Part shown: positions 21,546 to 57,338 of the stretch, piece after piece | How positions within the stretch are numbered: the first letter of the stretch is position 1 | Layout of the letters: each line of letters starts with the position of its first letter | Source of the DNA: Haplodiscus bocki | Lineage: Eukaryota | NCBI GenBank assembly: GCA_965655095.1 | Contig: OZ296648.1 | Coordinates: 8,494,001-8,558,000 of the forward strand | Direction: 5' to 3' | Length of the DNA stretch: 64,000 nucleotides | Translations under genes and position numbers: made by a program | The notes under the pieces: model-generated | What the model was told of the DNA's origin: nothing | Database searches by the model: none | What the model saw: only the letters and a program-made list of their open reading frames with translations

Positions 21546-22274
21546 GTAAGTCTGTTAGTTAGTTAGTTAATTGATTTTTTACTCAGTGAACTGCTCATGT
21601 ACTTTATTGGTAATAAGTCAGGCCGTTGATTAAATGCTTACTTAGTTAACTGCGTCGGTACATAATCTATTTTTTTTGGATTTTTCTAGGACTCGAAAAT
21701 AAGCCGATTATAAACATAACCTAGCTGCCTGATTTTAAGCCAGAACGGGTACCTCGCAAAAATCCTTTAAAATTTCGGGGAAAGGTGTTTTTCCAGCATG
21801 TCAAACTTTCTTCTCTCAAGACCAGTACTTGTGCAAGCTTTCTCGTGCAAAATTCCGAAGTGTCCTTTCACCAAAAAGATCGAAGCGCGCGAGTAGCTTC
21901 GATTGTCAAAAAATGACCCATCTGGTCGAATAGAAGCCGAACTTTTGAAAAAGTAGTGGATATTTTCCGTTTTTTCACATCAGCCCTAATGACAAAATTA
22001 TTACTTGCACCCTAGCTGATACTGTTCAAGATTGTTGTTCAATGAAATTTATTGGAACTGAGTTTTACTTCAACTAGCTTCAGCTTCTTGTAAATTGCGT
22101 GCATTGTCTCCTGAACACAAAAGATGAAGTCAGTGAATACATTGCTAGCAGAAGCTACAGCTTCAACCAGCAAGAAGTAATCTGCTGGGGGCTAACGGAA
22201 AACACTCAAAATAGAAACTAGTAATCCGGTTGAAACGAACTGATCTCTCCGTAGTAGTAATTGATTGTTTGCAG

Positions 22275-22878
22275 GGTGCTCGGAGGACTTTTATCTGCAC
22301 ATATCTTAGCCGCTTCCCAGTTATCATCATCATCATCTAAACCAACAGAATCAACAGTTAGAAAGACAACTTTTAATCCAGTGTCATCATCATCATTACC
22401 TGAAGAAAAATTATCTGGAGTGACTAGCCATAAGCAACAGAAGATGGACCCTTCTAAAGACAGTACAACCTCCTCGCTACAGGGCGCTGACAAAAAAACG
22501 AGATATTCTAACTACTCATCGACGTCATCTGCTGACAATTTGAGGCAACAGCATACTAAACCCCCCGTCCATTCAGGTGGTTTTGGTGACTCTAATTTAT
22601 CCTCTAACAGCAGATCAACTAGAAAACCAAGCTCAAGCGAAAAAGTTAGTGCCTCCCCAAACACAGCTCGAGATCAATCTCCATGGTTGTCGGATGTAGA
22701 TGAAGAATCTACTTCACTCAAAGACAGCAATGAACAGAATTCTGAATCTATCTCGTCTTCGGCTGGAGAGACAGTTGTGGCTGATTACGACAACGAGCTG
22801 TATGATTTAGCCCTGGATCTGGCCGCAAGACTTCTGCCGGCTTTTCAGAATAGCAAAAATGGACTACCACATCCCAGA
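22275..22878 (+). CDS. EDEM1: EDEM1-like exon with long Ser-rich insertion
   Basis: VLGGLLSAH...DYDNELYDLALDLAARLLPAFQNSKNGLPHPR. CAG acceptor and GTACGT donor. Confidence 0.88.
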
Positions 22879-36631: not shown

Positions 36632-36637
36632 GCAGTG
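36632..36637 (+). repeat. Left 6-bp target site duplication GCAGTG
   Basis: Identical direct copy at 57333-57338, immediately outside the inverted termini. Confidence 0.9.
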
Positions 36638-37620
36638 AATAATATACTATATTGCGGATTTACCGGTAACTCCCCTGCGGGTCCTTACTAATAAATCCGA
36701 CAATATAGCCGTTCCCTACGCTTCGCTTCGGTCACTTATATTATTGCTCAGCTCTTTGAGCTTCGCCTTTCCTGACTCGCTTCTACGAAGCTCGTGGGAT
36801 GCTCGTCTCCGTCTCGCATAACTGATATACAATCACATACCATTATTTTCCACCACATAAAAACCATAGTTGAAATAAGCATGAATGTAAGGAAACGTGT
36901 ATATAAAAATCCACATTTATGTAAACGTAAAATTGTGAAGCAACGGTAAAACGTACTTGCACGTGTATTTTTATGTTAGTATTCTCTTTTCTATTTTGTC
37001 TCCTATAGCAGATCGGTATTTGTAGAATGACATCGATGAAGTTAAGGTATTGCCGCAGTGTTTGGGGTTCGCTGCTTAATACGTATCCCCAGTCGTTTGT
37101 CGTACATTGCCATGATGCTATAGGAGGAACTGTCCATGTCTTAATGCTTGAAAAAGCAGAATAGATCGACGGGGATATCCACCAGGAATGCTCACTCGAA
37201 GACAGCTGAAAAGCTCGACATGAAAGTTGGCCAGTGGATATTTTATCTTATTACGAAAACACGATTTCTGAGAAATATTCACCTTATGCCGACATACCTT
37301 AAACATGTAGAGATTATAAAATTTCAAGCTACAAATACAAATGATATACCATTAGAAAGCTCGTTAAAAGTTTAGTAAACCCTGAAAATTTCAGCTTTGT
37401 ATCTATTACCATCTTCGAGAAAATTGACAAAAACCTAAAATGTCGACATACCTTAAACATGTAGAGATTGTAAAATTTTGAGTTACAACAATGTGTGATA
37501 TACTTTTGGATAGCTTGTTGTAATAATAGTTTACCCTGAAAATTTCAACTTCGTATCTATTATAATTATTTGAATAAAAGTACGATGATTCAGAAATCAT
37601 TGTTAACAATAAAATTATTA
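36638..37620. promoter_or_regulatory. Left terminal non-coding region, putative replication origin (mirrored at 56347-57332)
   Basis: AATAAT terminal repeat, a cluster of GC-richer short hairpins at 36655-36820, and a degenerate direct repeat with ~154-bp period (37290 vs 37444). Confidence 0.55.
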
Positions 37621-37624
37621 TAAA

Positions 37625-37825: not shown

Positions 37826-40800
37826 TTAAGAACTCCTTATTCTTCTATTTCTCATATTTTGATTATGGCATTGTCTACATATAGTTTTGTTTTTAATATA
37901 ATTATCAGGATTTATTACATTTTCACATTTACTACATTTTTTTATTGTATCTTTAACAGGTTTTTCTGTAACAATATTGTCTTCTGTTTGATAATACGGG
38001 AGCATGTAACCTAATTCATTTTCTGGTTTACGCTTTAATTTTTTTATTTCAACAGAGTATATAGCTATACGAGTTATTTTATTTAAACAATCTTTACAAC
38101 TGTTACTTATTTCACATTGAAAACAATTCATTTGAGGTTTAAGTAGGCATGATTTACATAGTTTGTTTTCATTACAAAGTTCACAATACGGTTTACGATG
38201 CGGTATTTTAATTCCGGCAAGTTCCCGTTTCCATTTTAGTTTAGATCTGTTTTCAATTGTTAATCCTTTTTCTAAATCAAGAAAACCTTTAAATGTTATA
38301 TCATTTATATTTTGGTTGAATCCTTTGAAAGTTGTTTTTTGTGATAAAACACCGTTTTCATCTATAACAATACAGTATTTGACTTTTGGAGCTAAAAACA
38401 ATCCATATTTGATACCCGCATTATCACCATAATCATTTTAGATTGCCAAAGACCTTTTCCTATTAAACCATTTTCATCCAAGATATTGTAATCGTTTTTG
38501 TGTATATATACACTATCGGTATCTCCATAGTATATTTTATTGTTTGTGAAACCATCTAATATTAAAATAACATCGTTCATTAATCTTTTTGAATGTGATA
38601 AAATCGTAGAGCCAAATTGAAATGGTTGGCTATTTATCTTTTTAGATATACCATTATCGTCGACACCTTCATGATCTACTATATTAACCATATAATTACC
38701 GTTTTCAAGAGGTATATAATTTTTAACTCTATCATCGTATTCTGTAAGCATCCAATTTTCTGTTACACATTTGTAATTTTCGGTAATATCTTGTCTAATA
38801 CAACTTCCATAACCACCGTTTACGGTATCTTTACACATTAATTGCAATATATTTTTACCTTGATTTTTATATTCATTACGTTTGTCTATCAAATCATGAA
38901 CATATTCGGTAAATGGATTGTAATCTAAATTATCACAGATAAATCCTTCTATAAATTCTAAAATAATACCTCCTATTCTAACAATTTGTTCAATATCAAC
39001 GCTAGTTAAATGCTGAGTTATATGACCATTTCGAAATCTATTTACACGCTCGAATTTGTTTTTTGACTCATTAAAGACTTCTTCGTTAACAGCTGAATGT
39101 TGTAATATTAAGTATTCAGGTTTATAATATTTGACTTTAAAAAATCCGGAATTGTTTAAGTTTTTCCATCCGTTATTGTTAAAGAGATCACATAAATAAT
39201 TACTGTCTTGTTTAGGATTGATAGCTATCGATGTTTCTATTTTAGGCCATGTTGATTTATGACACGACATAGCTGACGGATATAACGATGTATAATCACT
39301 GCTTACTAACAGATCAGACTTATCGATTTTGTTTAATTCTTTCGATATAGGTAAACTTGCTAGTTTTTCGTTAACATATTTTTCTTGTTCTTTAGTATCA
39401 ATTCGTCTATAATCAACATATCTCGATTCGTATTTCTTATTGTAATGTTCACGAACTTTATTGATTTGACGGTAATATATACTGAACAATGTTGATATTT
39501 CTTGATCTTTACCTAAATATTTTTCGAGAATGTCAACTATTTGATTAAAAGAAGACGAAACAAATTTACGGTTCAAAGCAACAACTCTTCCTCCATGTAC
39601 TGTTTTTCTAATGAAATCTCTAACGTATTTATTTTTTGGGGTATAAAACGTTTTTCCTGAAGCCTCCATATATTTACCTAACGTCGACCATGATAACGAC
39701 GATTGTGTTAACGAAGTTTTAAATGAAACACCAGTTATTTTTTGAATTTTGTTAGCGTGTTTAGCAACGAGCATACCTAACCCTAAAACATCATTAATCA
39801 AATACGGTTTCCAAAAACGTTCTTTTTCTGTATAGTTAGATAATGTTATATCACTATGTTCCATTTCAGTCTTTAAAAGTTGTGGTTGTATACCATAATC
39901 TTTTTGAATCTTTCTTAATGATCCTGATATATGTACTTTACTACAGACGAATTTCATGTATTGAGGTATTTCTTTATTATTGTTGTCATAAATAGTACCT
40001 ACTCTAAAAATTAGTTTCAAAATACCTCTAGATGTATGTATTATTTTTGGAAAATATGTTTTCGGGAGAGAATTTAATACAATAACGTTATCGAATCCAG
40101 AAGCGTTATGAGGTATTAGTTGATATTTATAACAAGATATTTTATAATTACCGTCTTTATCTTTGAAAAATTTAGGTTTTCCTTTGTAGTTTCTAACGAT
40201 AAAATTTATCATGTCCATTACAGGGTTTTTGTTTTTATAATCAAAAATGTGAACATTTTCTCTCTCGATTTTTAATTCGTCTTCAGATAAATTACCATTG
40301 TAACACTCCTTTAGACGATTAAGATGATAACAACCGGCAGCATATGGAACACAATATTGTTTATAATCAACGTTAGCTGTTTCAAGGTCAAAAGCAAATA
40401 CGGCATATAGACAATCTTTTTCGTTTGATATAGGAAATTTATATTCTTGAACCTGTTTGAGTATGTTATCAGATATTTGGTTATCTTCATATTTGAAATT
40501 GTCTTCTAATTCTTTTATGGCGTTAGTGAAAGAGGTGTTTTTTGTCTTCCATATCACACAGAAATGATTTTCATGGATAATTAAACAAAGTCTTCGTTCA
40601 GTAACATATCGAGGAAGAATTTCTTGTTGATTTATATTGTAAACACCGAGGTTGATGTTATATTTTTTACAAAATGGTTGAATTTTAGCAGAAGTCTTAA
40701 TGTTTTTGGTTGTTTTACTGTTTTTTATAAAATCATGATATTTTTTAGTAAAATCTTTTTTGTATATGAATTCAAGACATTTTCTGAAACATTCGTTTTC

Positions 40801-41407
40801 TTCAGGAATATAACATAAATTACCTCTATATTCAACAATCTTTTTAAAACTATCACAACCAGTACCATAATATGAACGACGAATTTTATTGAATGATTTG
40901 GTGTATTTAATAACTATTCCTGTAAAAGTGATTGCCACGCTTTCATCATATCTTTCATTGATTTTTTCTATTCTTTCAATCAAAGCATCTCTATTACTAA
41001 AGAAAGCATTTATCATGGAAGATTCTTTATCATTGATTTTTAATTCGCCTTTTAATATAAAAGGATATTCATCTGTTACATTTTCAAGTACCTTTATAAT
41101 ATCATCGTTCTCAAATTTGACTATGTTGTTTTCTATAATATTTAGATATTCTCCCAAATCAATTTCATCGTTATCGAATTTAATATCACTAAAATCGAAC
41201 GGATTAGTCTCACCATAACGCTCATTATCTCGAATTTTTTGGTTAATGTTGTTTAATTCAATTATTTTATTATTATGTCTGGTGACTAATTCGTTTTTGG
41301 AATCGTTTAAAACCTCGTTGTTTCTTGTTTGTGGTGTTTTTTATTTTATTATTTACTATTTCTATTCTGTGTTCCAATAATTCAATCTCTTCGATAATTT
41401 GTTCCAT
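37826..41407 (-). pseudogene. Left-arm pPolB, frameshifted
   Basis: Near-identical to 52558-56142. A 2-bp deletion near 41317 and a 1-bp deletion near 38438 split it into the 921-aa and 191-aa track ORFs. Confidence 0.92.
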
Positions 41408-41507
41408 TTAATAAAATATAAATCGTTGAATTAAAAAATTAAACAGGTTGAAAAAGTAGTATTTTAAATTAATTCATATAAGAATTCAATAATTTATTAT
41501 TAAATAA

Positions 41508-41807
41508 ATGAATGACCAAATACAAATAAATAAAATTTTTCGTCTATGCGGTCATGAAAGAGAGTATGATAACTATCACAGACTATATGTTGCTTGCAAA
41601 AAAAGCGCTAGTAGACGATGTGCTAAACATTATCAGAAAAACAGGGAAAAAATATTAGAAAAAGCTAAATTATATCGAGAAAACAATAAAGATAAATTAA
41701 AACAAAACCGAAAAACAGTTAGTTCATATAAAGATGATATACAAGATCTTTACAATCAGATTAACACCTTAACAGAGATGCTGAAATCTACCACATTAGT
41801 TACTTAG
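41508..41807 (+). CDS. Left-arm copy 1 of the 99-aa Zn-ribbon/basic coiled-coil protein (two Cys lost)
   Basis: Mirror of 52158-52457, with ICRLC changed to IFRLC and CKKC to CKKS. Confidence 0.65.
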   Translation: MNDQIQINKIFRLCGHEREYDNYHRLYVACKKSASRRCAKHYQKNREKILEKAKLYRENNKDKLKQNRKTVSSYKDDIQDLYNQINTLTEMLKSTTLVT

Positions 41808-41902
41808 AATGGTGTTGATTCGAGAATACAAAATAACAACAGAATCGTTAACAGTTCATTTTAAAAAAATAATATTGAAATAATAATTATCTCTTTTTAA
41901 AC

Positions 41903-42638
41903 ATGACAGGCCTGATGTGTCAAGTAACGTGTGCGCCGTGTGATTTAAAAATTGATGAAACGAAGTGGAAGGAACACTTATGTTCTGAAAAACATTTAAA
42001 ATATTGTAAAGGTGCTGACCAAAGTATTGCAATAAAATTCTTTGAAATGATTTTTGCAGCAAATCCAGAAAAAAAAGATATTCAATTCAAAAATTGAAAA
42101 GGCACTCGATTTCTGGCGTTTATATTTTTCGACAAAACTACCAAAAGAGAAATCTGATCTATTATGTAATGATTCATACGATAAAAAGGAAATAGAGAAA
42201 AATCTTGAAACCGATTTCAACGATTTTATATTAAAAGTAGTACCTATTATCGGAAAAAACTATTTTCCTTCATTGAAAGATAAAACATTTTGTGAAATTT
42301 GTAGTGTAGAAGTAAATATAACACTTCTTTATAAACATATTAATTCAAAAGAACACAAGCAAATCGAAAATTACCTTATTAAGAACAGCATGACATATTG
42401 TGAAGTTTGTAAAAAAGAGATAAGAAATGATGAATGGAGAGAACATAATATTTCAGAAAATCACTTAGAGAAAGAACAAAAAAATTATTGTAAAGTTTGT
42501 AAGACGAAATATAGTGTTGTAGGGTATGCGAATTCATATGATAGTTTCCAAGAAAAATGCAGATGGGCTGAAGTTAGTCACACAGCTAACAAGGATCACA
42601 AACTAAATGCAGAGAGATTTGATTTTTATGGTTGTTAA
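41903..42638 (+). CDS. Multi U1/matrin-type C2H2 zinc-finger protein split at an A8 run (copy 1)
   Basis: The 64-aa and 194-aa ORFs overlap at GAAAAAAAAG and carry repeated CxxC...H..S..H fingers. Confidence 0.7.
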
Positions 42639-42676
42639 ATCAGAAAATTTATAATGATGAGTACTTTTGTATATAA

Positions 42677-42967
42677 ATGAATAAAAGATTTTCATACGAT
42701 AATATGATTAAATCACGATCAATAGAACCAAGTGACATAATTAGAACCTTTAAACTAGATCGATGTTGTGATTTTATGGAAGAGAAATACAATAATCCTA
42801 GATTAACTCAAAAAGAAATTTGTAATCAGCTAGGATTTACTGATAGAACTATTAGACGATACAGAGATGATATTAAAATGGATAGTCCTTATAGAATAAA
42901 TAATAACAAAAAGAAAAAACCTAAACAACCAACAGATACTAAATCAGTTCCAAATAAGAAATCTTAA
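42677..42967 (+). CDS. HTH DNA-binding protein (copy 1); reading frame continues past TAA to 43135
   Basis: LTQKEICNQLGFTDRTIRRY helix-turn-helix and a basic KKKKPK patch. Confidence 0.7.
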   Translation: MNKRFSYDNMIKSRSIEPSDIIRTFKLDRCCDFMEEKYNNPRLTQKEICNQLGFTDRTIRRYRDDIKMDSPYRINNNKKKKPKQPTDTKSVPNKKS

Positions 42968-43197
42968 AACAATGTTATAAAAGGTGGTAATGTTTCTGAT
43001 ACCCACACATTATCTGGTAGAGAATTAATCGCTCATACTTTTCAGAATGATAAAGCAGACTCTATTTTAGAAAACAAACAGGAAGATAATAAAAAATATA
43101 TTACTATAGCTAGAAGAATGGTAGATGGTGTTTAAAAACACATATAATTGCATGAATATCAAATATAATTACTCATACACGAGTTTCTTATTATTAA

Positions 43198-43503
43198 ATG
43201 GATAAAATAGAACAAGAAATAAAACAAGATGAAAATACGATAAATGATATAGCAGAGAAATTAGAACTCGTCTCTAACACTAATATGATAACAAAAGAAG
43301 AACTTTTACAGAAATTTGTAGCTAAAGATGTTATAAAAAACAAGATGATTAATGTTGCTGGTCAAATGTTTATAGAATATGAGAAAGAATTAGATAATTC
43401 TAATAAAATAATCAAAGGATACGAAGATTATATCGGAGATGATAAAATCAGAAAGGATATATTAGATAACGTTTGTGGATTAAACAAAGTCTTCGTTCAG
43501 TAA
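43198..43503 (+). pseudogene. Truncated copy of the 131-aa helical protein at the duplication junction
   Basis: Nearly identical to 46094-46489 up to ...VCG, then reads into pPolB antisense. Confidence 0.8.
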
Positions 43504-44307
43504 CATATCGAGGAAGAATTTCTTGTTGATTTATATTGTAAACACCGAGGTTGATGTTATATTTTTTACAAAATGGTTGAATTTTAGCAGAAGTCATAAT
43601 GTTTTTGGTTGTTTTACTGTTTTTTATAGAAATCATGATATTTTTTAGTAAAATCTTTTTTGTATATGAATTCAAGACATTTTCTGAAACATTCGTTTTC
43701 TTCAGGAATATAACATAAATTACCTCTATATTCAACAATCTTTTTAAAACTATCACAACCAGTACGATAATATGAACGACGAATTTTATTGAATGATTTG
43801 CTGTATTTAATAACTATTCCTTTAAAAGTGATTGGCACGCTTTCATCATATCTTTCATTGATTTTTTCTATTCTTTCAATCAAAGCATCTCTTTTACTAA
43901 AGAAAGCATTTATCATGGAAGATTCTTTATCATTGATTTTTAATTCGCCTTTTAATATAAGAGGATATTCATCTGTTACATTTTCAAGTACCTTTATAAT
44001 ATCATCGTTCTCAAATTTGACTATGTTGTTTTCTATAATATTTAGATATTCTCCCAAATCAATTTCATCGTTATCGAATTTAATATCACTAAAATCAAAC
44101 GGATTAGTCTCACCATAACGCTCATTATCTCGAATTTTTTGGTTAATGTTGTTTAATTCAATTATTTTATTATTATGTCTGGTGACTAATTCGTTTTTGG
44201 AATCGTTTAAAACCTCGTTGTTTCTTGTTTGTGGTGTTTTTTATTTTATTATTTACTATTTCTATTCTGTGTTCCAATAATTCAATCTCTTCGATAATTT
44301 GTTCCAT
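43480..44307 (-). pseudogene. 5' fragment of pPolB in the duplicated unit
   Basis: N-terminal ~275 codons only, with frameshifts near 44217 and 43625. Confidence 0.88.
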
Positions 44308-44407
44308 TTAATAAAATATAAATCGTTGAATTAAAAAATTAAACAGGTTGAAAAAGTAGTATTTTAAATTAATTCATATAAGAATTCAATAAATTATTAT
44401 TAAATAA

Positions 44408-44703
44408 ATGAATGACCAAATACAAATAAATAAAATTTGTCGTCTATGCGGTCATGAAAGAGTATGATAACTATCACAGACTATATGTTGCTTGCAAAAA
44501 AAGCGCTAGTAGACGATGTGCTAAACATTATCAGAAAAACAGGGAAAAAATATTAGAAAAAGCTAAATTATATCGAGAAAACAATAAAGATAAATTAAAA
44601 CAAAACCGAAAAAGTTAGTTCATATAAAGATGATATACAAGATCTTTACAAACAGATTAACACCTTAACAGAGATGCTGAAATCTACCACATTAGTTACT
44701 TAG
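44408..44703 (+). pseudogene. Left-arm copy 2 of the 99-aa protein, frameshifted
   Basis: 2-bp deletions near 44460 and 44613 relative to the other copies. Confidence 0.75.
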
Positions 44704-44798
44704 AATGGTGTTGATTCGAGAATACAAAATAACAACAGAATCGTTAACAGTTCATTTTAAAAAAATAATATTGAAATAATAATTATCTCTTTTTAAAC

Positions 44799-45534
44799 AT
44801 GACAGGCCTGATGTGTCAAGTAACGTGTGCGCCGTGTGATTTAAAAATTGATGAAACGAAGTGGAAGGAACACTTATGTTCTGAAAAACATTTAAAATAT
44901 TGTAAAGGTGCTGACCAAAGTATTGCAATAAAATTCTTTGAAATGATTTTTGCAGCAAATCCAGAAAAAAAAGATATTCAATTTAAAAAATGAAAAGGCA
45001 CTCGATTTCTGGCGTTTATATTTTTCGACAAAACTACCAAAAGAGAAATCTGATCTATTATGTAATGATTCATACGATAAAAAGGAAATAGAGAAAAATC
45101 TTGAAACCGATTTCAACGATTTTATATTAAAAGTAGTACCTATTATCGGAAAAAACTATTTTCCTTCATTGAAAGATAAAACATTTTGTGAAATTTGTAG
45201 TGTAGAAGTAAATATAACACTTCTTTATAAACATATTAATTCAAAAGAACACAAGCAAATCGAAAATTACCTTATTAAGAACAGCATGACATATTGTGAA
45301 GTTTGTAAAAAAGAGATAAGAAATGATGAATGGAGAGAACATAATATTTCAGAAAATCACTTAGAGAAAGAACAAAAAAATTATTGTAAAGTTTGTAAGA
45401 CGAAATATAGTGTTGTAGGGTATGCGAATTCATATGATAGTTTCCAAGAAAAATGCAGATGGGCTGAAGTTAGTCACACAGCTAACAAGGATCACAAACT
45501 AAATGCAGAGAGATTTGATTTTTATGGTTGTTAA
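44799..45534 (+). CDS. Multi C2H2 zinc-finger protein split at an A8 run (copy 2)
   Basis: Same structure as 41903-42638 and 51327-52062. Confidence 0.7.
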
Positions 45535-45572
45535 ATCAGAAAATTTATAATGATGAGTACTTTTGTATATAA

Positions 45573-45863
45573 ATGAATAAAAGATTTTCATACGATAATA
45601 TGATTAAATCACGATCAATAGAACCAAGTGACATAATTAGAACCTTTAAACTAGATCGATGTTGTGATTTTATGGAAGAGAAATACAATAATCCTAGATT
45701 AACTCAAAAAGAAATTTGTAATCAGCTAGGATTTACTGATAGAACTATTAGACGATACAGAGATGATATTAAAATGGATAGTCCTTATAGAATAAATAAT
45801 AACAAAAAGAAAAAACCTAAACAACCAACAGATACTAAATCAGTTCCAAATAAGAAATCTTAA
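45573..45863 (+). CDS. HTH protein (copy 2)
   Basis: Identical 96-aa translation in all three copies. Confidence 0.7.
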   Translation: MNKRFSYDNMIKSRSIEPSDIIRTFKLDRCCDFMEEKYNNPRLTQKEICNQLGFTDRTIRRYRDDIKMDSPYRINNNKKKKPKQPTDTKSVPNKKS

Positions 45864-46093
45864 AACAATGTTATAAAAGGTGGTAATGTTTCTGATACCC
45901 ACACATTATCTGGTAGAGAATTAATCGCTCATACTTTTCAGAATGATAAAGCAGACTCTATTTTAGAAAACAAACAGGAAGATAATAAAAAATATATTAC
46001 TATAGCTAGAAGAATGGTAGATGGTGTTTAAAAACACATACAATTGCATGAATATCAAATATAATTACTCATACACGAGTTTCTTATTATTAA

Positions 46094-46489
46094 ATGGATA
46101 AAATAGAACAAGAAATAAAACAAGATGAAAATACGATAAATGATATAGCAGAGAAATTAGAACTCGTCTCTAACACTAATATGGTAACAAAAGAAGAACT
46201 TTTACAGAAATTTGTAGCTAAAGATGTTATAAAAAACAAGATGATTAATGTTGCTGGTCAAATGTTTATAGAATATGAGAAAGAATTAGATAATTCTAAT
46301 AAAATAATCAAAGGATACGAAGATTATATCGGAGATGATAAAATCAGAAAGGTTATATTAGATAAAGTTTGTGGAGATAACGTAAAAGAAGTTTGTTCTG
46401 AGAAAGATGAAGTTTATAAAAATAATTCTATTAACAGATTTATTAAAATTTTAAATAATAATAAACGAGAAATGCTATCAAACAAATAA
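46094..46489 (+). CDS. 131-aa predicted helical/coiled-coil protein, unknown function (left arm)
   Basis: TAAATG start; mirror of 50372-50767. Confidence 0.65.
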   Translation: MDKIEQEIKQDENTINDIAEKLELVSNTNMVTKEELLQKFVAKDVIKNKMINVAGQMFIEYEKELDNSNKIIKGYEDYIGDDKIRKVILDKVCGDNVKEVCSEKDEVYKNNSINRFIKILNNNKREMLSNK

Positions 46490-47860: not shown

Positions 47861-48330
47861 TTTGATCTAGCCAGATTTTTGTTAAAAGTATTTGATCGGC
47901 CAAGATTTATGTTTAAAGTATTTTGATCGAACAAGATTTATGTTTAAAGTATTTGATCGAACAAGATTTATGTTTAAAGTATTTGATCGAACAAGATTTT
48001 TATTTAAAGTATTTTGATTGAACAAGATTATGTTTAAAGTATCTGATCGAACAAGATTTTTGTATAAAGTATTTGATTGAACAAGATTTTGTTAAAAGTA
48101 TTTTATTCAAACAAGATTTTTATTTAAAATATTTGATCGAACAAGACTTATGTTAAAAGTATTTTGATTGAACAAGATTTATGTATAAAGTATTTTGATC
48201 GAACAAGATTTTTGTATAAAGTGTTTGAATAAGATTTATGTATAAAGTATTTGATCGAACAAGATTATGTTAAAAGTATTATGATCGAACAAGATTATGT
48301 TAAAAGTATTTTGATCGAACAAGATTAATG
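47861..48330 (+). repeat. Tandem array, ~16 x ~30 bp (TTTGATCGAACAAGATTTATGTTTAAAGTA), left of centre
   Basis: Directly visible head-to-tail units of 26-31 bp with no unique spacers. Confidence 0.92.
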
Positions 48331-48390
48331 TCAAAGATTATTCCAAAACAGATAAGTATAATTAAAATTACACAAATTGTTACATGAGCT

Positions 48391-48497
48391 TATATTTCGG
48401 ACAGGGGCGGACACATTGTAATTATATAAGTGTGATAATGCAAAATATATATACAATTATTTGTTTATTCTAGTGTCGGCGCAGTGTCGGAAATTTG
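48391..48497. other. 107-nt central spacer of the palindrome, itself an imperfect hairpin
   Basis: Perfect arm symmetry stops at ...TACATGAGCT (48390) and resumes at AGCTCATGTA (48498). Inside, ATTTCGGACA pairs with TGTCGGAAAT, CGGACAC with GTGTCGG and ATAAGTGT with ACAATTAT, each with a mismatch. Confidence 0.85.
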
Positions 48498-48557: not shown

Positions 48558-48997
48558 CATTAATCTTGTTCGATCATAATACTTTTAACATAATCTTGTT
48601 CGATCATAATACTTTTAACATAATCTTGTTCGATCAAATACTTTATACATAAATCTTATTCAAATTTTTTATACAAATATCTTGTTCGATCAAAATACTT
48701 TATACATAAATCTTGTTCGATCAAAATACTTTAAACATAATCTTGTTCAATCAAAATACTTTTAACATAAGTCTTGTTCGATCAAATATTTTAAATAAAA
48801 ATCTTGTTTGAATAAAATACTTTTAACAAAATCTTGTTCAATCAAATACTTTATACAAAAATCTTGTTCGATCAAATACTTTAAACATAAATCTTGTTCG
48901 ATCAAATACTTTAAACATAAATCTTGTTCGATCAAAATACTTTAAACATAAATCTTGGCCGATCAAATACTTTTAACAAAAATCTGGCTAGATCAAA
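48558..48997 (-). repeat. Inverted copy of the ~30-bp tandem array (~15 units), right of centre
   Basis: Reverse complement of 47861-48330 with unit gain/loss. Confidence 0.92.
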
Positions 48998-48998
48998 T

Positions 48999-49541
48999 TT
49001 AATCAAGATACTTGTATTTTAAAAGTATCTTACAAACTCTTTCATCGAAATAATCCAAATCTTTTAGTTTGTTTAGATTATTCTCGTATTGTTTTTCTTC
49101 TCTCATAGTTATTCTATTATTTTTTATTTTATCGTGTAGCATTCTATTTTTAGTTAGAATTCTATTTATTTTATCTTGAGTTTTTATATCTAAATTATTT
49201 ATTTTATCTTTTATTAATTTTTTATAATTATTAAGATATAGACCATCTCCTATTGTTGGATATAAAGGTTCGTTATTTTCATCTGTAATATTATTTTTGT
49301 CTGTCTTATTAGAAGTACTATTGTTCTTGACTGTCTTATTAGAAGTACTATTATTGTAAGTACAAACGTAAGTACTATGTCTCTGCTTTATGTGTTTGGA
49401 TAAATTAGTACTATTAAATTCCTTATCACAATAACCACATTTAACTTTTTTATTTAAACAATGTTTACAAAAACTTTTCTTATAGGAATAGAAATTATCA
49501 ATCTCTAAATCTCTTTTACAAGCATTGCAGTACTTCAGCAT
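48999..49541 (-). CDS. 180-aa C4 + C2H2 zinc-finger protein (right arm)
   Basis: CNAC...CKHC and CGYC...HIKQRH; intact in both arms. Confidence 0.7.
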   Translation of the reverse strand: MLKYCNACKRDLEIDNFYSYKKSFCKHCLNKKVKCGYCDKEFNSTNLSKHIKQRHSTYVCTYNNSTSNKTVKNNSTSNKTDKNNITDENNEPLYPTIGDGLYLNNYKKLIKDKINNLDIKTQDKINRILTKNRMLHDKIKNNRITMREEKQYENNLNKLKDLDYFDERVCKILLKYKYLD

Positions 49542-49640
49542 GGTTATTTAAATCAATGAAAACTGTATTATTCAGATATTTTGAAATTTCTAATCACTAT
49601 TACTTATTCATAATTGAAATAAATTATCTGAATTAATAAA

Positions 49641-50048
49641 ATGTATTGTGCTCAAAACAACAGAATTTACTGTAGTGATTGTAATAAATCTTATATTCCT
49701 AATAATTATTCGAATCATTTGAAATCCAAAGGACATTATATTAATGTTATGAAAAAAAGTTGTAATAATCATGATCTCACATGTAGTATGAATAAGCTAT
49801 CTCTTGAATCGAATGATAGCGTAAAAACAGACTTTTCAAACGTTAAAAATATTACAAAAAGTAACCAAACAAAAGTAAAACATAATGGTTCTGAAATTTT
49901 GTTATTAAGACTCTGTAATCAGGAGGATAGAGAATCAATTATAGAAGATAAAGCAGTGTTAGAAAAGTTATATAGTGTTATGGGAATAACTTTGGGAGAA
50001 TATGTCTTTTGCCAAGGTGGGTATGCATATATAAGGATAAAGATATGA
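49641..50048 (+). CDS. 135-aa U1/matrin-type C2H2 finger protein (right arm)
   Basis: CSDC...HLKSKGH; TAAAATG start; divergent from the 180-aa gene across 99 bp. Confidence 0.7.
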   Translation: MYCAQNNRIYCSDCNKSYIPNNYSNHLKSKGHYINVMKKSCNNHDLTCSMNKLSLESNDSVKTDFSNVKNITKSNQTKVKHNGSEILLLRLCNQEDRESIIEDKAVLEKLYSVMGITLGEYVFCQGGYAYIRIKI

Positions 50049-50082
50049 ACTAAAAATTGAAAAAATTTATCTTAATAATAAA

Positions 50083-50244
50083 ATGCCTTGTACACAAAAC
50101 AGAATTTATTGTGGTGTTTGTCATATATCTGTTTTACCTGACAATTATCAAAACCATTTTAGATCTCAAGGACATGCTAGTAACGTTTTAAAAAACTCGT
50201 GTACTAATTCAATGATAATAAAAACACATAATAAGAAAAGATAA
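50083..50244 (+). CDS. 53-aa C2H2 finger protein, paralog of the 135-aa N-terminus (below ORF-track cutoff)
   Basis: MPCTQNRIYCGVCHISVLPDNYQNHFRSQGH aligns with MYCAQNNRIYCSDCNKSYIPNNYSNHLKSKGH. Same upstream motif. Confidence 0.65.
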   Translation: MPCTQNRIYCGVCHISVLPDNYQNHFRSQGHASNVLKNSCTNSMIIKTHNKKR

Positions 50245-50418
50245 ATGAAAACAGAAATTGTTAACAATATAGCAAACGAAGCAATATATCAATTACAATA
50301 TTATAAAAATCTATATCATTCACATAAAAAGATTAATAAAATATTATTTTTGATACTTTTTTCAATATTAATTATTTGTTTGATAGCATTTCTCGTTTAT
50401 TATTATTTAAAATTTTAA
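50245..50418 (+). CDS. 57-aa tail-anchored membrane protein candidate (below ORF-track cutoff)
   Basis: MKTEIVNNIANEAIYQLQYYKNLYHSHKKINKILFLILFSILIICLIAFLVYYYLKF. The ATG directly follows the previous stop (TAA-ATG). Confidence 0.45.
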   Translation: MKTEIVNNIANEAIYQLQYYKNLYHSHKKINKILFLILFSILIICLIAFLVYYYLKF

Positions 50419-50767
50419 TAAATCTGTTAATAGAATTATTTTTATAAACTTCATCTTTCTCAGAACAAACTTCTTTTACGTTATCTCCACAAACTTTATC
50501 TAATATATCCTTTCTGATTTTATCATCTCCGATATAATCTTCGTATCCTTTGATTATTTTATTAGAATTATCTAATTCTTTCTCATATTCTATAAACATT
50601 TGACCAGCAACATTAATCATCTTGTTTTTTATAACATCTTTAGCTACAAATTTCTGTAAAAGTTCTTCTTTTGTTACCATGTTAGTGTTAGAGACGAGTT
50701 CTAATTTCTCTGCCATATCATTTATCGTATTTTCATCTTGTTTTATTTCTTGTTCTATTTTATCCAT
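50372..50767 (-). CDS. 131-aa helical protein, unknown function (right arm)
   Basis: TAAATG start; conserved in both arms. Confidence 0.65.
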   Translation of the reverse strand: MDKIEQEIKQDENTINDMAEKLELVSNTNMVTKEELLQKFVAKDVIKNKMINVAGQMFIEYEKELDNSNKIIKGYEDYIGDDKIRKDILDKVCGDNVKEVCSEKDEVYKNNSINRFIKILNNNKREMLSNK

Positions 50768-50997
50768 TTAATAATAAGAAACTCGTGTATGAGTAATTAT
50801 ATTTGATGTTCATGCAATTATATGTGTTTTTAAACACCATCTACCATTCTTCTAGCTATAGTAATATATTTTTTATTATCTTCCTGTTTGTTTTCTAAAA
50901 TAGAGTCTGCTTTATCATTCTGAAAAGTATGAGCGATTAATTCTCTACCAGATAATGTGTGGGTATCAGAAACATTACCACCTTTTATAACATTGTT

Positions 50998-51288
50998 TTA
51001 AGATTTCTTATTTGGAACTGATTTAGTATCTGTTGGTTGTTTAGGTTTTTTCTTTTTGTTATTATTTATTCTATAAGGACTATCCATTTTAATATCATCT
51101 CTGTATCGTCTAATAGTTCTATCAGTAAATCCTAGCTGATTACAAATTTCTTTTTGAGTTAATCTAGGATTATTGTATTTCTCTTCCATAAAATCACAAC
51201 ATCGATCTAGTTTAAAGGTTCTAATTATGTCACTTGGTTCTATTGATCGTGATTTAATCATATTATCGTATGAAAATCTTTTATTCAT
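50998..51288 (-). CDS. HTH protein (right arm); frame continues past TAA to 50830
   Basis: HTH motif LTQKEICNQLGFTDRTIRRY; TAAATG start. Confidence 0.7.
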   Translation of the reverse strand: MNKRFSYDNMIKSRSIEPSDIIRTFKLDRCCDFMEEKYNNPRLTQKEICNQLGFTDRTIRRYRDDIKMDSPYRINNNKKKKPKQPTDTKSVPNKKS

Positions 51289-51326
51289 TTATATACAAAA
51301 GTACTCATCATTATAAATTTTCTGAT

Positions 51327-52062
51327 TTAACAACCATAAAAATCAAATCTCTCTGCATTTAGTTTGTGATCCTTGTTAGCTGTGTGACTAACTTCAGCCC
51401 ATCTGCATTTTTCTTGGAAACTATCATATGAATTCGCATACCCTACAACACTATATTTCGTCTTACAAACTTTACAATAATTTTTTTGTTCTTTCTCTAA
51501 GTGATTTTCTGAAATATTATGTTCTCTCCATTCATCATTTCTTATCTCTTTTTTACAAACTTCACAATATGTCATGCTGTTCTTAATAAGGTAATTTTCG
51601 ATTTGCTTGTGTTCTTTTGAATTAATATGTTTATAAAGAAGTGTTATATTTACTTCTACACTACAAATTTCACAAAATGTTTTATCTTTCAATGAAGGAA
51701 AATAGTTTTTTCCGATAATAGGTACTACTTTTAATATAAAATCGTTGAAATCGGTTTCAAGATTTTTCTCTATTTCCTTTTTATCGTATGAATCATTACA
51801 TAATAGATCAGATTTCTCTTTTGGTAGTTTTGTCGAAAAATATAAACGCCAGAAATCGAGTGCCTTTTCATTTTTTAAATTGAATATCTTTTTTTTCTGG
51901 ATTTGCTGCAAAAATCATTTCAAAGAATTTTATTGCAATACTTTGGTCAGCACCTTTACAATATTTTAAATGTTTTTCAGAACATAAGTGTTCCTTCCAC
52001 TTCGTTTCATCAATTTTTAAATCACACGGCGCACACGTTACTTGACACATCAGGCCTGTCAT
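51327..52062 (-). CDS. Multi U1/matrin-type C2H2 finger protein split at an A8 run (right arm)
   Basis: CAPC..WKEHLCSEKH, CEIC..KHINSKEH, CEVC..WREHNISENH and CKVC..HTANKDH. Confidence 0.7.
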
Positions 52063-52157
52063 GTTTAAAAAGAGATAATTATTATTTCAATATTATTTTT
52101 TTAAAATGAACTGTTAACGATTCTGTTGTTATTTTGTATTCTCGAATCAACACCATT

Positions 52158-52457
52158 CTAAGTAACTAATGTGGTAGATTTCAGCATCTCTGTTAAGGTG
52201 TTAATCTGATTGTAAAGATCTTGTATATCATCTTTATATAAACTAACTGTTTTTCGGTTTTGTTTTAATTTATCTTTATTGTTTTCTCGATATAATTCAG
52301 CTTTTTCTAATATTTTTTCCCTGTTTTTCTGATAATGTTTAGCACATCGTCTACTAGCGCATTTTTTGCAAGCAACATATAGTCTGTGATAGTTATCATA
52401 CTCTCTTTCATGACCGCATAGACGACAAATTTTATTTATTTGTATTTGGTCATTCAT
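52158..52457 (-). CDS. 99-aa Zn-ribbon/basic coiled-coil protein (right arm, intact)
   Basis: CRLC...CKKC followed by YQKNREKILEKAELYRENNKDK; TAAATG start; divergent from pPolB across 100 bp. Confidence 0.7.
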   Translation of the reverse strand: MNDQIQINKICRLCGHEREYDNYHRLYVACKKCASRRCAKHYQKNREKILEKAELYRENNKDKLKQNRKTVSLYKDDIQDLYNQINTLTEMLKSTTLVT

Positions 52458-52557
52458 TTATTTAATAATAATTTATTGAATTCTTATATGAATTAATTTA
52501 AAATACTACTTTTTCAACCTGTTTAATTTTTTAATTCAACGATTTATATTTTATTAA

Positions 52558-55500
52558 ATGGAACAAATTATCGAAGAGATTGAATTATTGGAACACAGAA
52601 TAGAAATAGTTAATATTAAAATAAAAAACACCACAAACAAGAAACAACTCGAGGTTTTAAACGATTCCAAAAACGAATTAGTCACCAGACATAATAATAA
52701 AATAATTGAATTAAACAACATTAACCAAAAAATTCGAGATATTGAGCGTTATGGTGAGACTAATCCGTTTGATTTTAGTGATATTAAATTCGATAACGAT
52801 GAAATTGATTTGGGAGAATATCTAAATATTATAGAAAACAACATAGTCAAATTTGAGAACGATGATATTATAAAGGTACTTGAAAATGTAACAGATGAAT
52901 ATCCTTTTATATTAAAAGGCGAATTAAAAATCAATGATAAAGAATCTTCCATGATAAATGCTTTCTTTAGTAATAGAGATGCTTTGATTGAAAGAATAGA
53001 AAAAATCAATGAAAGATATGATGAAAGCGTGCCAATCACTTTTAAAGGAATAGTTATTAAATACAGCAAATCATTCAATAAAATTCGTCGTTCATATTAT
53101 GGTACTGGTTGTGATAGTTTTAAAAAGATTGTTGAATATAGAGGTAATTTATGTTATATTCCTGAAGAAAACGAATGTTTCAGAAAATGTCTTGAATTCA
53201 TATACAAAAAAGATTTTACTAAAAAATATCATGATTTTATAAAAAACAGTAAAACAACCAAAAACATTATGACTTCTGCTAAAATTCAACCATTTTGTAA
53301 AAAATATAACATCAACCTCGGTGTTTACAATATAAATCAACAAGAAATTCTTCCTCGATATGTTACTGAACGAAGACTTTGTTTAATTATCCATGAAAAT
53401 CATTTCTGTGTGATATGGAAGACAAAAAACACCTCTTTCACTAACGCCATAAAAGAATTAGAAGACAATTTCAAATATGAAGATAACCAAATATCTGATA
53501 ACATACTCAAACAGGTTCAAGAATATAAATTTCCTATATCAAACGAAAAAGATTGTCTATATGCCGTATTTGCTTTTGACCTTGAAACAGCTAACGTTGA
53601 TTATAAACAATATTGTGTTCCATATGCTGCCGGTTGTTATCATCTTAATCTTCTAAAGGAGTGTTACAATGGTAATTTATCTGAAGACGATATAAAAATC
53701 GAGAGAGAAAATGTTCACATTTTTGATTATAAAAACAAAAACCCTTTAATGGACATGATAAATTTTATCGTTAAAAACTACAAAGGAAAACCTAAATTTT
53801 TCAAAGATAAAGACGGTAATTATAAAATATCTTGTTATAAATATCAACTAATAGCTCATAACGCTTCTGGATTCGATAACGTTATTGTATTAAATTCTCT
53901 CCCGAAAACATATTTTCCAAAAATAATACATACATCTAGAGGTATTTTGAAACTAAGTTTTAGAGTAGGTACTATTTATGACAACAATAATAAAGAAATA
54001 CCTCAATACATGAAATTCGTCTGTAGTAAAGTACATATATCAGGATCATTAAGAAAGATTCAAAAAGATTATGGTATACAACCACAACTTTTAAAGACTG
54101 AAATGGAACATAGTGATATAACATTATCTAACTATACAGAAAAAGAACGTTTTTGGAAACCGTATTTGATTAATGATGTTTTAGGGTTAGGTATGCTCGT
54201 TGCTAAACACGCTAACAAAATTCAAAAAATAACTGGTGTTTCATTTAAAACTTCGTTAACACAATCGTCGTTATCATGGTCGACGTTAGGTAAATATATG
54301 GAGGCTTCAGGAAAAACGTTTTATACCCCAAAAAATAAATACGTTAGAGATTTCATTAGAAAAACAGTACATGGAGGAAGAGTTGTTGCTTTGAACCGTA
54401 AATTTGTTTCGTCTTCTTTTAATCAAATAGTTGACATTCTCGAAAAATATTTAGGTAAAGATCAAGAAATATCAACATTGTTCAGTATATATTACCGTCA
54501 AATCAATAAAGTTCGTGAACATTACAATAAGAAATACGAATCGAGATATGTTGATTATAGACGAATTGATACTAAAGAACAAGAAAAATATGTTAACGAA
54601 AAACTAGCAAGTTTACCTATATCGAAAGAATTAAACAAAATCGATAAGTCTGATCTGTTAGTAAGCAGTGATTATACATCGTTATATCCGTCAGCTATGT
54701 CGTGTCATAAATCAACATGGCCTAAAATCGAAACATCGATAGCTATCAATCCTAAACAAGACAGTAATTATTTATGTGATCTCTTTAACAATAACGGATG
54801 GAAAAACTTAAACAATTCCGGATTTTTTAAAGTCAAATATTATAATCCTGAATACTTAATATTACAACATTCAGCTGTTAACGAAGAAGTCTTTAATGAG
54901 TCAAAAAACAAAATCGAGCGTGTAAATAGATTTCGAAATGGTCATATAACTCAGCATTTAACTAGCGTTGATATTGAACAAATTGTTAGAATAGGAGGTA
55001 TTATTTTAGAATTTATAGAAGGATTTATCTGTGATAATTTAGATTACAATCCATTTACCGAATATGTTCATGATTTGATAGACAAACGTAATGAATATAA
55101 AAATCAAGGTAAAAATATATTGCAATTAATGTTTAAAGATACCGTAAACGGTGGTTATGGAAGTTGTATTAGACAAGATATTACCGAAAATTACAAATGT
55201 GTAACAGAAAATTGGATGCTTACAGAATACGATGATAGAGTTAAAAATTATATACCTCTTGAAAACGGTAATTATATGGTTAATATAGTAGATCATGAAG
55301 GTGTCGACGATAATGGTATATCTAAAAAGATAAATAGCCAACCATTTCAATTTGGCTCTACGATTTTATCACATTCAAAAAGATTAATGAACGATGTTAT
55401 TTTAACATTAGATGGTTTCAAAAACAATAAAATATACTATGGAGATACCGATAGTGTATATATACACAAAAACGATTACAATATCTTGGATGAAAATGGT

Positions 55501-56142
55501 TTAATAGGACAAGGTCTTTGGCAATCTAAAAATGATTATGGTGATAATGCGGGTATCATATATGGATTGTTTTTAGCTCCAAAAGTCAAATACTGTATTG
55601 TTATAGATGAAAACGGTGTATTTTCACAAAAAACAACTTTCAAAGGATTCAACCAAAATATAAATGATATAACATTTAAAGGTTTTCTTGATTTAGAAAA
55701 AGGATTAACAATTGAAAACAGATCTAAACTAAAATGGAAACGGGAACTTGCCGGAATTAAAATACCGCATCGTAAACCGTATTGTGAACTTTGTAATGAA
55801 AACAAACTATGTAAATCATGCCTACTTAAACCTCAAATGAATTGTTTTCAATGTGAAATAAGTAAAAGTTGTAAAGATTGTTTAAATAAAATAACTCGTA
55901 TAGCTATATACTCTGTTGAAATAAATAAATTAAAGCGTAAACCAGAAAATGAATTAGGTTACATGCTCCCGTATTATCAAACAGAAGACAATATTGTTAC
56001 AGAAAAACCTGTTAAAGATACAATAAAAAAATGTAGTAAATGTGAAAATGTAATAAATCCTGATAATTGTATTAAAAACAAAACTATATGTAGACAATGC
56101 CATAATCAAAATATGAGAAATAGAAGAATAAGGAGTTCTTAA
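52558..56142 (+). CDS. polB: Protein-primed family B DNA polymerase (pPolB), 1194 aa, intact
   Basis: ExoI FAFDLET (D341/E343), ExoII HNASGFD (D440), ExoIII YLIND (D540), HGGRV, motif A SSDYTSLYPSAM (D705), motif B KDTVNGGYG (K860), motif C YGDTDS (D963/D965) and FLAPKVKY. No introns. Confidence 0.95.
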   Translation: MEQIIEEIELLEHRIEIVNIKIKNTTNKKQLEVLNDSKNELVTRHNNKIIELNNINQKIRDIERYGETNPFDFSDIKFDNDEIDLGEYLNIIENNIVKFENDDIIKVLENVTDEYPFILKGELKINDKESSMINAFFSNRDALIERIEKINERYDESVPITFKGIVIKYSKSFNKIRRSYYGTGCDSFKKIVEYRGNLCYIPEENECFRKCLEFIYKKDFTKKYHDFIKNSKTTKNIMTSAKIQPFCKKYNINLGVYNINQQEILPRYVTERRLCLIIHENHFCVIWKTKNTSFTNAIKELEDNFKYEDNQISDNILKQVQEYKFPISNEKDCLYAVFAFDLETANVDYKQYCVPYAAGCYHLNLLKECYNGNLSEDDIKIERENVHIFDYKNKNPLMDMINFIVKNYKGKPKFFKDKDGNYKISCYKYQLIAHNASGFDNVIVLNSLPKTYFPKIIHTSRGILKLSFRVGTIYDNNNKEIPQYMKFVCSKVHISGSLRKIQKDYGIQPQLLKTEMEHSDITLSNYTEKERFWKPYLINDVLGLGMLVAKHANKIQKITGVSFKTSLTQSSLSWSTLGKYMEASGKTFYTPKNKYVRDFIRKTVHGGRVVALNRKFVSSSFNQIVDILEKYLGKDQEISTLFSIYYRQINKVREHYNKKYESRYVDYRRIDTKEQEKYVNEKLASLPISKELNKIDKSDLLVSSDYTSLYPSAMSCHKSTWPKIETSIAINPKQDSNYLCDLFNNNGWKNLNNSGFFKVKYYNPEYLILQHSAVNEEVFNESKNKIERVNRFRNGHITQHLTSVDIEQIVRIGGIILEFIEGFICDNLDYNPFTEYVHDLIDKRNEYKNQGKNILQLMFKDTVNGGYGSCIRQDITENYKCVTENWMLTEYDDRVKNYIPLENGNYMVNIVDHEGVDDNGISKKINSQPFQFGSTILSHSKRLMNDVILTLDGFKNNKIYYGDTDSVYIHKNDYNILDENGLIGQGLWQSKNDYGDNAGIIYGLFLAPKVKYCIVIDENGVFSQKTTFKGFNQNINDITFKGFLDLEKGLTIENRSKLKWKRELAGIKIPHRKPYCELCNENKLCKSCLLKPQMNCFQCEISKSCKDCLNKITRIAIYSVEINKLKRKPENELGYMLPYYQTEDNIVTEKPVKDTIKKCSKCENVINPDNCIKNKTICRQCHNQNMRNRRIRSS

Positions 56143-56343
56143 TTATTTTCCTGGTTTGATTATAATATATTGTGCGATATTTGAATTATGATTAAACCCA
56201 CCAATTATATTAAGTTCTTTTTCAGATTGTTGAAATTGTTCTATATTATCAAAATAAATAATTTGTATATCTTTACCGCTATGAACTAAATCTTCAAAAT
56301 CAGAATCATCAAAATCTGAATCATATATCTCATCATCGATCAT
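56143..56343 (-). CDS. Small acidic protein (~66 aa), tail-to-tail with pPolB
   Basis: MIDDEIYDSDFDDSDFED... Its stop codon abuts the pPolB stop. The left-arm copy starts at TAAATG. Confidence 0.55.
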   Translation of the reverse strand: MIDDEIYDSDFDDSDFEDLVHSGKDIQIIYFDNIEQFQQSEKELNIIGGFNHNSNIAQYIIIKPGK

Positions 56344-57332
56344 CAATTATAATAATTTTATTGTTAACAATGATTTCTGAATCATCGTACTTTTATTCTA
56401 ATAATTATAATAGATACGAAGTTGAAATTTTCAGGGTAAACTAATATTACAACAAGCTATCCGAAAGTATATCACACATTGTTGTAACTCAAAATTTTAC
56501 AATCTCTACATGTTTAAGGTATGTCGACATTTTAGGTTTTTGTCAATTTTCTCGAAGATGGTAATAGATACAAAGCTGAAATTTTCAGGGTTTACTAAAC
56601 TTTTAACGAGCTTTCTAATGGTATATCATTTGTATTTGTAGCTTGAAATTTTATAATCTCTACATGTTTAAGGTGTGTCGACATAATGTGAATATTTCTC
56701 AGAAATCGTGTTTTCGTAATAAGATAAAATATCCACTGGCCAACTTTCATGTCGAGCTTTTCAGCTGTCTTCGAGTGAGCATTCCTGGTGGATATCCCCG
56801 TCGATCTATTCTGCTTTTTCAAGCATTAAGACATGGACAGTTCCTCCTATAGCATCATGGCAATGTACGACAAACGACTGGGGATACGTATTAAGCAGCG
56901 AACCCCAAACACTGCGGCAATACCTTAACTTCATCGATGTCATTCTACAAATACCGATCTGCTATAGGAGACAAAATAGAAAAGAGAATACTAACATAAA
57001 AATACACGTGCAAGTACGTTTTACCGTTGCTTCACAATTTTACGTTTACATAAATGTGGATTTTTATATACACGTTTCCTTACATTCATGCTTATTTCAA
57101 CTATGGTTTTTATGTGGTGGAAAATAATGGTATGTGATTGTATATCAGTTATGCGAGACGGAGACGAGCATCCCACGAGCTTCGTAGAAGCGAGTCAGGA
57201 AAGGCGAAGCTCAAAGAGCTGAGCAATAATATAAGTGACCGAAGCGAAGCGTAGGGAACGGCTATATTGTCGGATTTATTAGTAAGGACCCGCAGGGGAG
57301 TTACTGGTAAATCCGCAATATAGTATATTATT

Positions 57333-57338
57333 GCAGTG
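57333..57338 (+). repeat. Right 6-bp target site duplication GCAGTG
   Basis: Matches 36632-36637. Confidence 0.9.

Follow-up and report, generated by a model that had tools for sequence, protein, structure and literature searches.

Transpovirons of the Megamimivirinae are capsid-less linear DNAs with few genes and terminal repeats that depend on the transcription machinery of a large virus. They are carried as episomes by virophage or giant-virus particles and form the third tier of a virus-virophage system (PMC11464507). Their superfamily 1 helicase is fused to an inactivated polymerase (PMC5499653), and the early promoter of mimivirus is AAAATTGA upstream of the start (PMC11464507). The yeast elements pGKL1 and pGKL2 are protein-primed linear DNAs in whose promoters an upstream element of pox-early type is coupled to a TAAA initiator. 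This virus-like element (VLE) system encodes its own RNA polymerase, uses ATNTGA 20–40 nucleotides (nt) before every open reading frame (ORF) and makes no virions (PMC6211774); the smaller VLE depends on a helper element (PMC13348850). Entomopoxvirus-associated Polinton-like viruses (PLVs) of insects have been proposed as poxvirus hyperparasites, and one integrated element without an integrase was possibly integrated in trans (PMC11296320). Here we describe a palindromic element in a 64,000-nt stretch of the genome of Haplodiscus bocki (assembly GCA_965655095.1, contig OZ296648.1, positions 8,494,001 to 8,558,000; hereafter the window). The host is likely an acoel: for COX1 of the assembly's mitochondrial contig, the closest named matches come from acoels (75% and 72%), compared to 61–67% for non-acoels. 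The element is palindromic mobile DNA present in many copies in this genome. In sequence, its start-site motifs match the late promoters of poxviruses, and its upstream box comes nearer to their early promoters than to the mimivirus motif. The account that we consider probable is that of a palindromic relative of the host's AT-rich PLVs which lacks both capsid and integrase, is transcribed in the cytoplasm by a pox-like helper and obtains integrase and capsid from a PLV.

Like transpovirons, the acoel element is capsid-less, has few genes and carries promoter motifs of a large-virus (pox) type. It differs from them in its own pPolB, in the pox type of its motifs, in a palindrome that spans the whole element, and in its insertion into animal chromosomes with 6-bp duplications. 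No helicase was found among the 11 ORFs scanned from the window. With the pGKL elements it shares a protein-primed polymerase and a pox-early-like box joined to a TAAA initiator, but it is chromosomal with target duplications, no multi-subunit RNA polymerase gene occurs in the window element, and ATNTGA is rare. pGKL1 has a hairpin or palindromic deletion derivative, on which a literature search turned up no paper. A target duplication of 6 bp is a Polinton feature. The pPolB, the inverted ends and the 6-bp duplication of the acoel element recall Polinton/Maverick elements (adintovirus, PMC8502044), but integrase, capsid, protease and ATPase are missing, the inverted repeat is the whole element and the starts are of pox type. 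The entomopoxvirus-associated PLVs differ in encoding capsids, in their size of about 12 kb and in their insect origin (PMC11296320), and the main text of that paper contains none of the terms 'promoter', 'TAAAT', 'RNA polymerase' and 'palindrom'. An egovirus KilA is described in parabasalid polintons (10.1101/2024.03.23.586382). The element would work like a transpoviron and like yeast pGKL1, yet is a member of neither group, nor of the autonomous Polintons. A search of open PMC and bioRxiv found no publication on a palindromic element of this kind or on acoel Polintons.

The palindrome occupies positions 36638–57332 (20.7 kb) and consists of two inverted arms about 99% identical, with ends of the form AATAAT...ATTATT. 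It is flanked by the 6-bp target-site duplication GCAGTG (36632–36637 and 57333–57338, both + strand). The outer terminal region lies at 56400–57332 (−), with its mirror copy at 36638–37570. The axis is an imperfect palindrome of about 100 nt with an AT-rich core and GC-rich boxes (48391–48497), set between two arrays of a 30-bp repeat, 15.3 copies on the left (47873–48331, +) and 14.2 on the right (48562–48985, −). Each arm holds one pPolB and nine small genes. The left arm carries in addition a 2.9-kb tandem duplication (40580–46375, +; units 40580–43479 and 43479–46375) and frameshifts, the left pPolB being among the frameshifted genes, whereas the right-arm pPolB keeps intact catalytic motifs. 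Genes for integrase, capsid, protease, ATPase or Rpo18 were not found in the window element, and eight PLV core proteins, integrase included, had no match inside it or inside 11 other full copies. Beyond pPolB, no ORF among the arm gene groups exceeds 251 amino acids (aa).

For comparison, 22 other loci of the palindromic element were fetched from the same genome. Both arms were seen at 13 of them, with 6-bp duplications at 11 of the 13 (one with a mismatch). Of the remaining nine, seven break off close to the centre where the assembly has a gap, one is partly covered and one is single-armed. Eleven other full copies are built like the window element and measure 16.0–19.5 kb; these lengths are approximate for seven copies because of a 200-N gap at the centre. 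Each arm is most closely related to the opposite arm of its own copy, in 12 of 12 cases. The element genes are under purifying selection in all groups tested (dN/dS 0.13–0.60, compared to at least 0.94 for three shadow ORFs). An assembly artefact was ruled out by distinct flanks with target duplications, arms 97.8–100% alike, unequal arrays, and a centre free of gaps in the window copy as well as in four others out of the 11. The element family was recovered together with host flank in four contig sets of one sequencing study. Copies of the terminal region (window 36638–37600) greatly outnumber those of the arm interior: a query containing it gave 11391 first-look candidates, and the summed contig depth over it is very high. 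This excess hints at many short derivatives or at shared ends.

For the conserved centre of about 100 nt there were 181 candidate loci, and all 40 that were scored matched it. Its flanks are mirrored in 26 of 30 cases when unequal array lengths are allowed and in 19 of 30 under a stricter symmetry test. It is predicted to be the hairpin end of a half-length form. The poxvirus concatemer junction is an AT-rich imperfect inverted repeat with tandem-repeat flanks that can refold to mismatched hairpin ends (PMC8956199). The acoel centre resembles it in layout, as an AT-rich imperfect palindrome between repeat arrays, with no claim of likeness in sequence; it differs in that inspection by eye found no resolution sequence beside the centre, and a search without a positive control found no resolvase in the host assembly; the element has none either. 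At two loci (L184 and L204) the left edge of the loop now carries right-edge sequence, as expected from cruciform or hairpin repair. A single-armed copy (L047-L048) runs just beyond the hairpin sequence of the centre before it ends, and a short tandem insertion lies close by.

The sequence-only reading of this DNA had reported promoter signatures of a cytoplasmic-virus type at the element's gene starts, and TAAATG was indeed found at each of the places it had named. In the right arm the motif stands at pPolB (52558–56142, +, motif at 52555; PF03175, E 7e-13), at a 99-aa Cys-finger/coiled-coil gene (52158–52457, −, motif at 52460 plus a ATTCAATAA box), at a helix-turn-helix (HTH) gene (50839–51288, −, motif at 51291), at the gene of a 131-aa helical protein (50372–50767, −, motif at 50770) and at that of a 57-aa protein with a hydrophobic C-terminus (50245–50418, +, motif at 50242). 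The sixth case is the left-arm copy of an acidic 66–67-aa gene (motif at 37621, +); the right-arm copy (56143–56343, −) reads TAATTG and has lost the ATG. TAAAATG is present, as claimed, at a 135-aa zinc-finger gene (49641–50048, +, motif at 49637) and at a 53-aa zinc-finger gene (50083–50244, +, motif at 50079), which are paralogues. Composite boxes of the form ATTGAAA..TTATCT lie at 49613, 50056 and 52091, that is 28, 27 and 29 nt upstream of an ATG. The sites and spacings given for three finger genes therefore held; the third of these genes (ATG at 52062) turned out to be a frameshifted gene of about 245 aa encoding multiple zinc fingers (51327–52062, −), split in the window copy into pieces of 64 and 82 aa, with TAAAC before its ATG.

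Both signals are concentrated at gene starts relative to background. TAAATG occurs at five of 10 right-arm starts, compared to 11 of 259 other ATGs (p=8e-5). Against the strictest background, the first ATGs after a stop outside gene frames, the figures are 5/10 and 11/181 (p=4e-4). The TAA of the 57-aa gene doubles as the stop of the upstream 53-aa gene; when this gene is dropped, four of nine starts still carry the motif (p=0.003). There is no general enrichment in the arm (16 occurrences, compared to 13.4 in 200 shuffles), and of the 58 non-start ATGs that follow AT-rich DNA, just one is preceded by TAA. The composite box occurs three times in the arm, always ahead of a gene, at none of the 259 other ATGs and at a mean of 0.003 in 300 shuffles; the boxes of the 135-aa and 53-aa genes are not fully independent because these genes are paralogues.

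Across copies, TAA directly before the ATG is kept in 19/21 acidic, 18/19 HTH, 17/17 131-aa, 16/16 57-aa, 16/16 99-aa and 6/6 type-A pPolB genes, and is lacking in the shadow ORFs. In the 135/53-aa group all 24 starts have a T followed by a run of A, and 20/24 have the box, which is also present at 12/14 starts of the 245-aa group. The copies carrying these motifs are 77–93% alike, and the counts are not independent events because the copies are related. Among 274 ORFs of the element family, the triplet before the ATG is TAA in 106 cases, TAG in two and TGA in four, compared to two, one and two in 68 other ORFs from DNA of at least 33% GC, a comparison that is not matched for AT content. TAA thus makes up 106 of 112 stop-like triplets, compared to 73–79% of real stops. 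None of three host histone starts and none of 11 ORFs of a GC-richer Polinton carries the TAA-ATG start.

Vaccinia late promoters have TAAAT followed by a G over the start codon and, amid further Ts, a T ten bases upstream of TAAAT (PMC11980589). A T(−10) test, made after this source had given the feature for vaccinia, found a mean T frequency of 0.80 at −10 and 0.81 at −11 before TAAAT in 17 gene groups, a value reached by none of 20000 shifts. The pox early element is an A-rich stretch of 15 nt with TGA at positions 6–8 and a transcription start about 12 nt downstream (PMC6211774). The three window boxes match it in sequence and spacing, and a start about 12 nt on lands in TAAA. In sequence, the box lies closer to the early element of poxviruses than to the mimivirus motif, although its core departs from TGA across the family. 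The comparison with the mimivirus early promoter made by the sequence-only reading did not survive: AAAATTGA is found ahead of only one of 10 window genes, in 10/24 and 4/16 members of two gene groups, and in none of eight other groups. ATNTGA is likewise rare, at most 4/15 in any gene group, and the mimivirus and yeast VLE motifs were both rejected on these counts. The entomopox early motif is TGAAAXXXXA (PMC7728225). It is present at nine of 14 starts in the 245-aa group and at two of 24 in the 135/53-aa group. The poxvirus early terminator TTTTTNT is expected behind early genes and not inside them; it is depleted only in the element's pPolB (window: 0, compared to 2.7 expected) and in a few other groups.

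The same genome holds a candidate partner. A32-type ATPases are numerous (150 of 150 scored true, 5172 candidates), and the ten loci examined comprise nine AT-rich PLVs and one GC-richer Polinton. The AT-rich family encodes capsid, integrase, protease and pPolB. Nine complete PLVs measure 17.3–20.0 kb, a length range like that of the eleven palindromes (p=0.65). One member of this AT-rich family, L113, which has integrase and capsid, carries the first ~35 nt of the window element and its 154-bp repeats (56408–56684), and four of the element's small-gene families have PLV homologues. In the nine PLVs the structural genes (capsid, protease and their neighbours) mostly have TAAAT starts without a box. 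Several non-structural genes have ATTT[C/G]AAATAA, and Rpo18 and several finger genes are boxed in part of the copies. The centre and the 30-bp arrays are absent from 40 PLV-containing stretches. The element's pPolB is 39% identical to that of L113 and falls in a separate clade (FastTree; proteins below 850 aa were left out and long-branch warnings apply). The element is therefore not a recent deletion derivative of the PLV. As it also has no pox gene, the partnership is drawn from the ends, the length and the shared small-gene families. A large pPolB clade (P0008-P0047) is 45–50% identical to the element's polymerase and more closely related to it than the PLV enzyme is. A second AT-rich virus-like block beside a PLV (L141:254-8774) has TTTAAATG starts on nearly all of its genes and homologues of the element's HTH and 180-aa genes; it is possibly a closer partner.

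The PLV Rpo18 matches PF03293 with E values of 1e-13 to 1e-20 in five of five tested, and its sole PDB match at E≤1 is vaccinia rpo18. Its named relatives, three among 10 looked up, come from sea otter poxvirus, carp edema virus and salmon gill poxvirus. Genome-wide, 150 of 150 scored Rpo18 hits were true (456 candidates), and their frames are mostly open. It is the only RNA polymerase subunit found in the PLV. The PF03293 match covers about 110–125 of 160 positions, so that the protein may be a variant or decoy subunit. Rpo18-bearing AT-rich PLVs include L113-L114-L139, L105-L106-L140 and L124-L138, some with terminal repeats of 1.5–3 kb that duplicate Rpo18; inverted pairs of Rpo18 proved to be long terminal repeats of PLVs, and their reading as palindromic elements was dropped. 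Two unnamed metagenomic Rpo18-like proteins (P0439, P0447) stand apart from the named chordopox and fish pox proteins and possibly belong to uncharacterised poxviruses. Viral contigs yielded no relative of pPolB or Rpo18, and metagenome contigs none of Rpo18.

The sequence-only reading had suggested that the host genome may store the element as a transpoviron-like parasite or satellite, which the RNA polymerase of a large DNA virus would transcribe. The enrichment tests, a PLV with the same promoters and an Rpo18, and the T(−10) signal lend this suggestion support. With neither gene of its own, the element likely borrows capsid and integrase from a related integrated virus. In the mechanism that we propose, infection of the cell by a pox-like virus would awaken a host copy that is otherwise silent. 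TAAATG genes would then be read as late or intermediate genes, whose transcripts would begin within the run of A and acquire a 5′ poly(A) leader by slippage, and the box genes (ATT[G/C]AAWWA at −23 to −29, then TAAA) would be read as an earlier class. The element's own pPolB would prime at the outer end of a hairpin-ended half genome of about 9 kb and copy round the hairpin, yielding a palindrome of about 18 kb with two identical protein-capped ends. Capsids of the PLV would then take up this doubled form, and the PLV integrase would insert it, a step proposed because it has the PLV length, PLV-type ends and 6-bp duplications.

A more ambitious version, to which we give slightly less than an even chance, is a three-tier acoel system made up of an undiscovered poxvirus, an integrated PLV virophage with its own Rpo18, and the palindromic element as satellite of the virophage. 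As part of that same tentative picture, the satellite would double a hairpin-ended half genome to capsid length, thereby gaining two integrase ends, and would be stored in chromosomes as an infection-triggered parasite or defence. If true, acoels, which branch early among the bilaterians, would be shown on sequence evidence to be present or past hosts of a poxvirus-type virus, and the virus-virophage-transpoviron pattern would reach from amoebae to the animal germ line. Among the relatives of Polintons, it would be unusual for replication to rest on a palindromic whole genome whose central hairpin is conserved. Both promoter motifs, together with Rpo18, provide direct search handles for the missing helper.

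Several observations weigh against transcription by a pox-like helper and partnership with the PLV. VLTF3, the VETF large subunit and the A22 resolvase were not found in the assembly, in searches without a positive control. Two Rpb2-like genes are present, and the one checked is host Pol III. No poxvirus resolution sequence is conserved beside the centre, as judged by eye, and one fetched copy is single-armed. The 180-aa zinc-finger gene (48999–49541, −) has neither TAAATG nor a box. The T(−10) signal comes mostly from 12 PLV groups, with four of six window genes showing it. Across the family the box core is TT[C/G]AA (C in 31/52, G in 21/52), where the canonical core is TGA, and TTATCT lies outside the pox consensus used for the comparison. 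TTTTTNT follows none of the 24 genes of the 135/53-aa group and shows no class pattern in the PLV, whose box genes are not depleted in it. Finally, the satellite pPolB is divergent from that of the PLV and the satellite carries no pox gene. The Pol III second subunit (locus L176) has an open frame of 1139 codons and is apparently intronless there.

The alternatives explain the same motifs differently. The element could be a nuclear transposon read by host Pol II and moved by the PLV integrase with no helper, its promoters inherited from a pox-dependent ancestor or acting as AT-rich initiators. The lack of a helper gene in the assembly and of a TTTTTNT pattern is compatible with this, and the PLV ATPase copy number (5172 candidates) is easily reached by nuclear transposition. 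However, the motifs are kept in copies 77–93% alike together with two positional details of vaccinia promoters, Rpo18 frames remain mostly open in the 150 scored copies, and host and GC-richer Polinton starts are without the motif, so we regard this explanation as unlikely. Slightly less probable still is a helper that is another cytoplasmic replicon with a related polymerase, be it mimivirus-like, another large DNA virus or a linear plasmid like the yeast VLEs. The acoel Rpo18 matches the pox family and vaccinia rpo18 only and not cellular Rpb7, and both AAAATTGA and ATNTGA are rare before element genes; this has to be set against the box plus TAAA initiator, which is also the yeast VLE promoter layout (PMC6211774), the departure of the box from the pox TGA core, and the long branch that separates the acoel Rpo18 group from the named poxviruses.

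A conserved centre at all 40 scored loci, mirrored in 26 of 30, is hard to reconcile with the element being a passive fold-back, a defective-interfering by-product of PLV replication with promoters kept by descent and a centre without a role. The centre and arrays are moreover missing from the 40 PLV-containing stretches, the pPolB forms its own clade, and all gene groups tested are under purifying selection. PLV terminal repeats, which range between about 0.5 and 3 kb in length and sometimes contain genes, and the four shared small-gene families fit such an origin, which we nevertheless hold to be very improbable. Chance in DNA of 75% AT, or stop-start overlap in a compact genome, would account for an overall TAAATG frequency no higher than in shuffles and for the 57-aa gene, since in 12 of its 16 copies the TAA doubles as the stop of the upstream frame. 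But the five other TAAATG groups of the element abut no upstream ORF (none of 19, 18, 17, 16 and 6), and stop-like triplets before the ATG favour TAA beyond the usage of real stops. The start-background, TAA-triplet and T(−10) tests refute chance as the source of the start enrichment, and as a general account it is scarcely credible.

Among the small genes of the arm, the window copy of the HTH gene is truncated at 96 aa, compared to about 159 aa in its relatives. The 131-aa protein, whose gene has a dN/dS of 0.13, gave no usable match in the ESM Atlas, and its AlphaFold model is poor (pLDDT 56). The ~245-aa protein falls into generic zinc-finger clusters in the ESM Atlas. Outside the element, window positions 20031–23001 show weak glycosyl hydrolase 47 matches that are probably exons of a host mannosidase.

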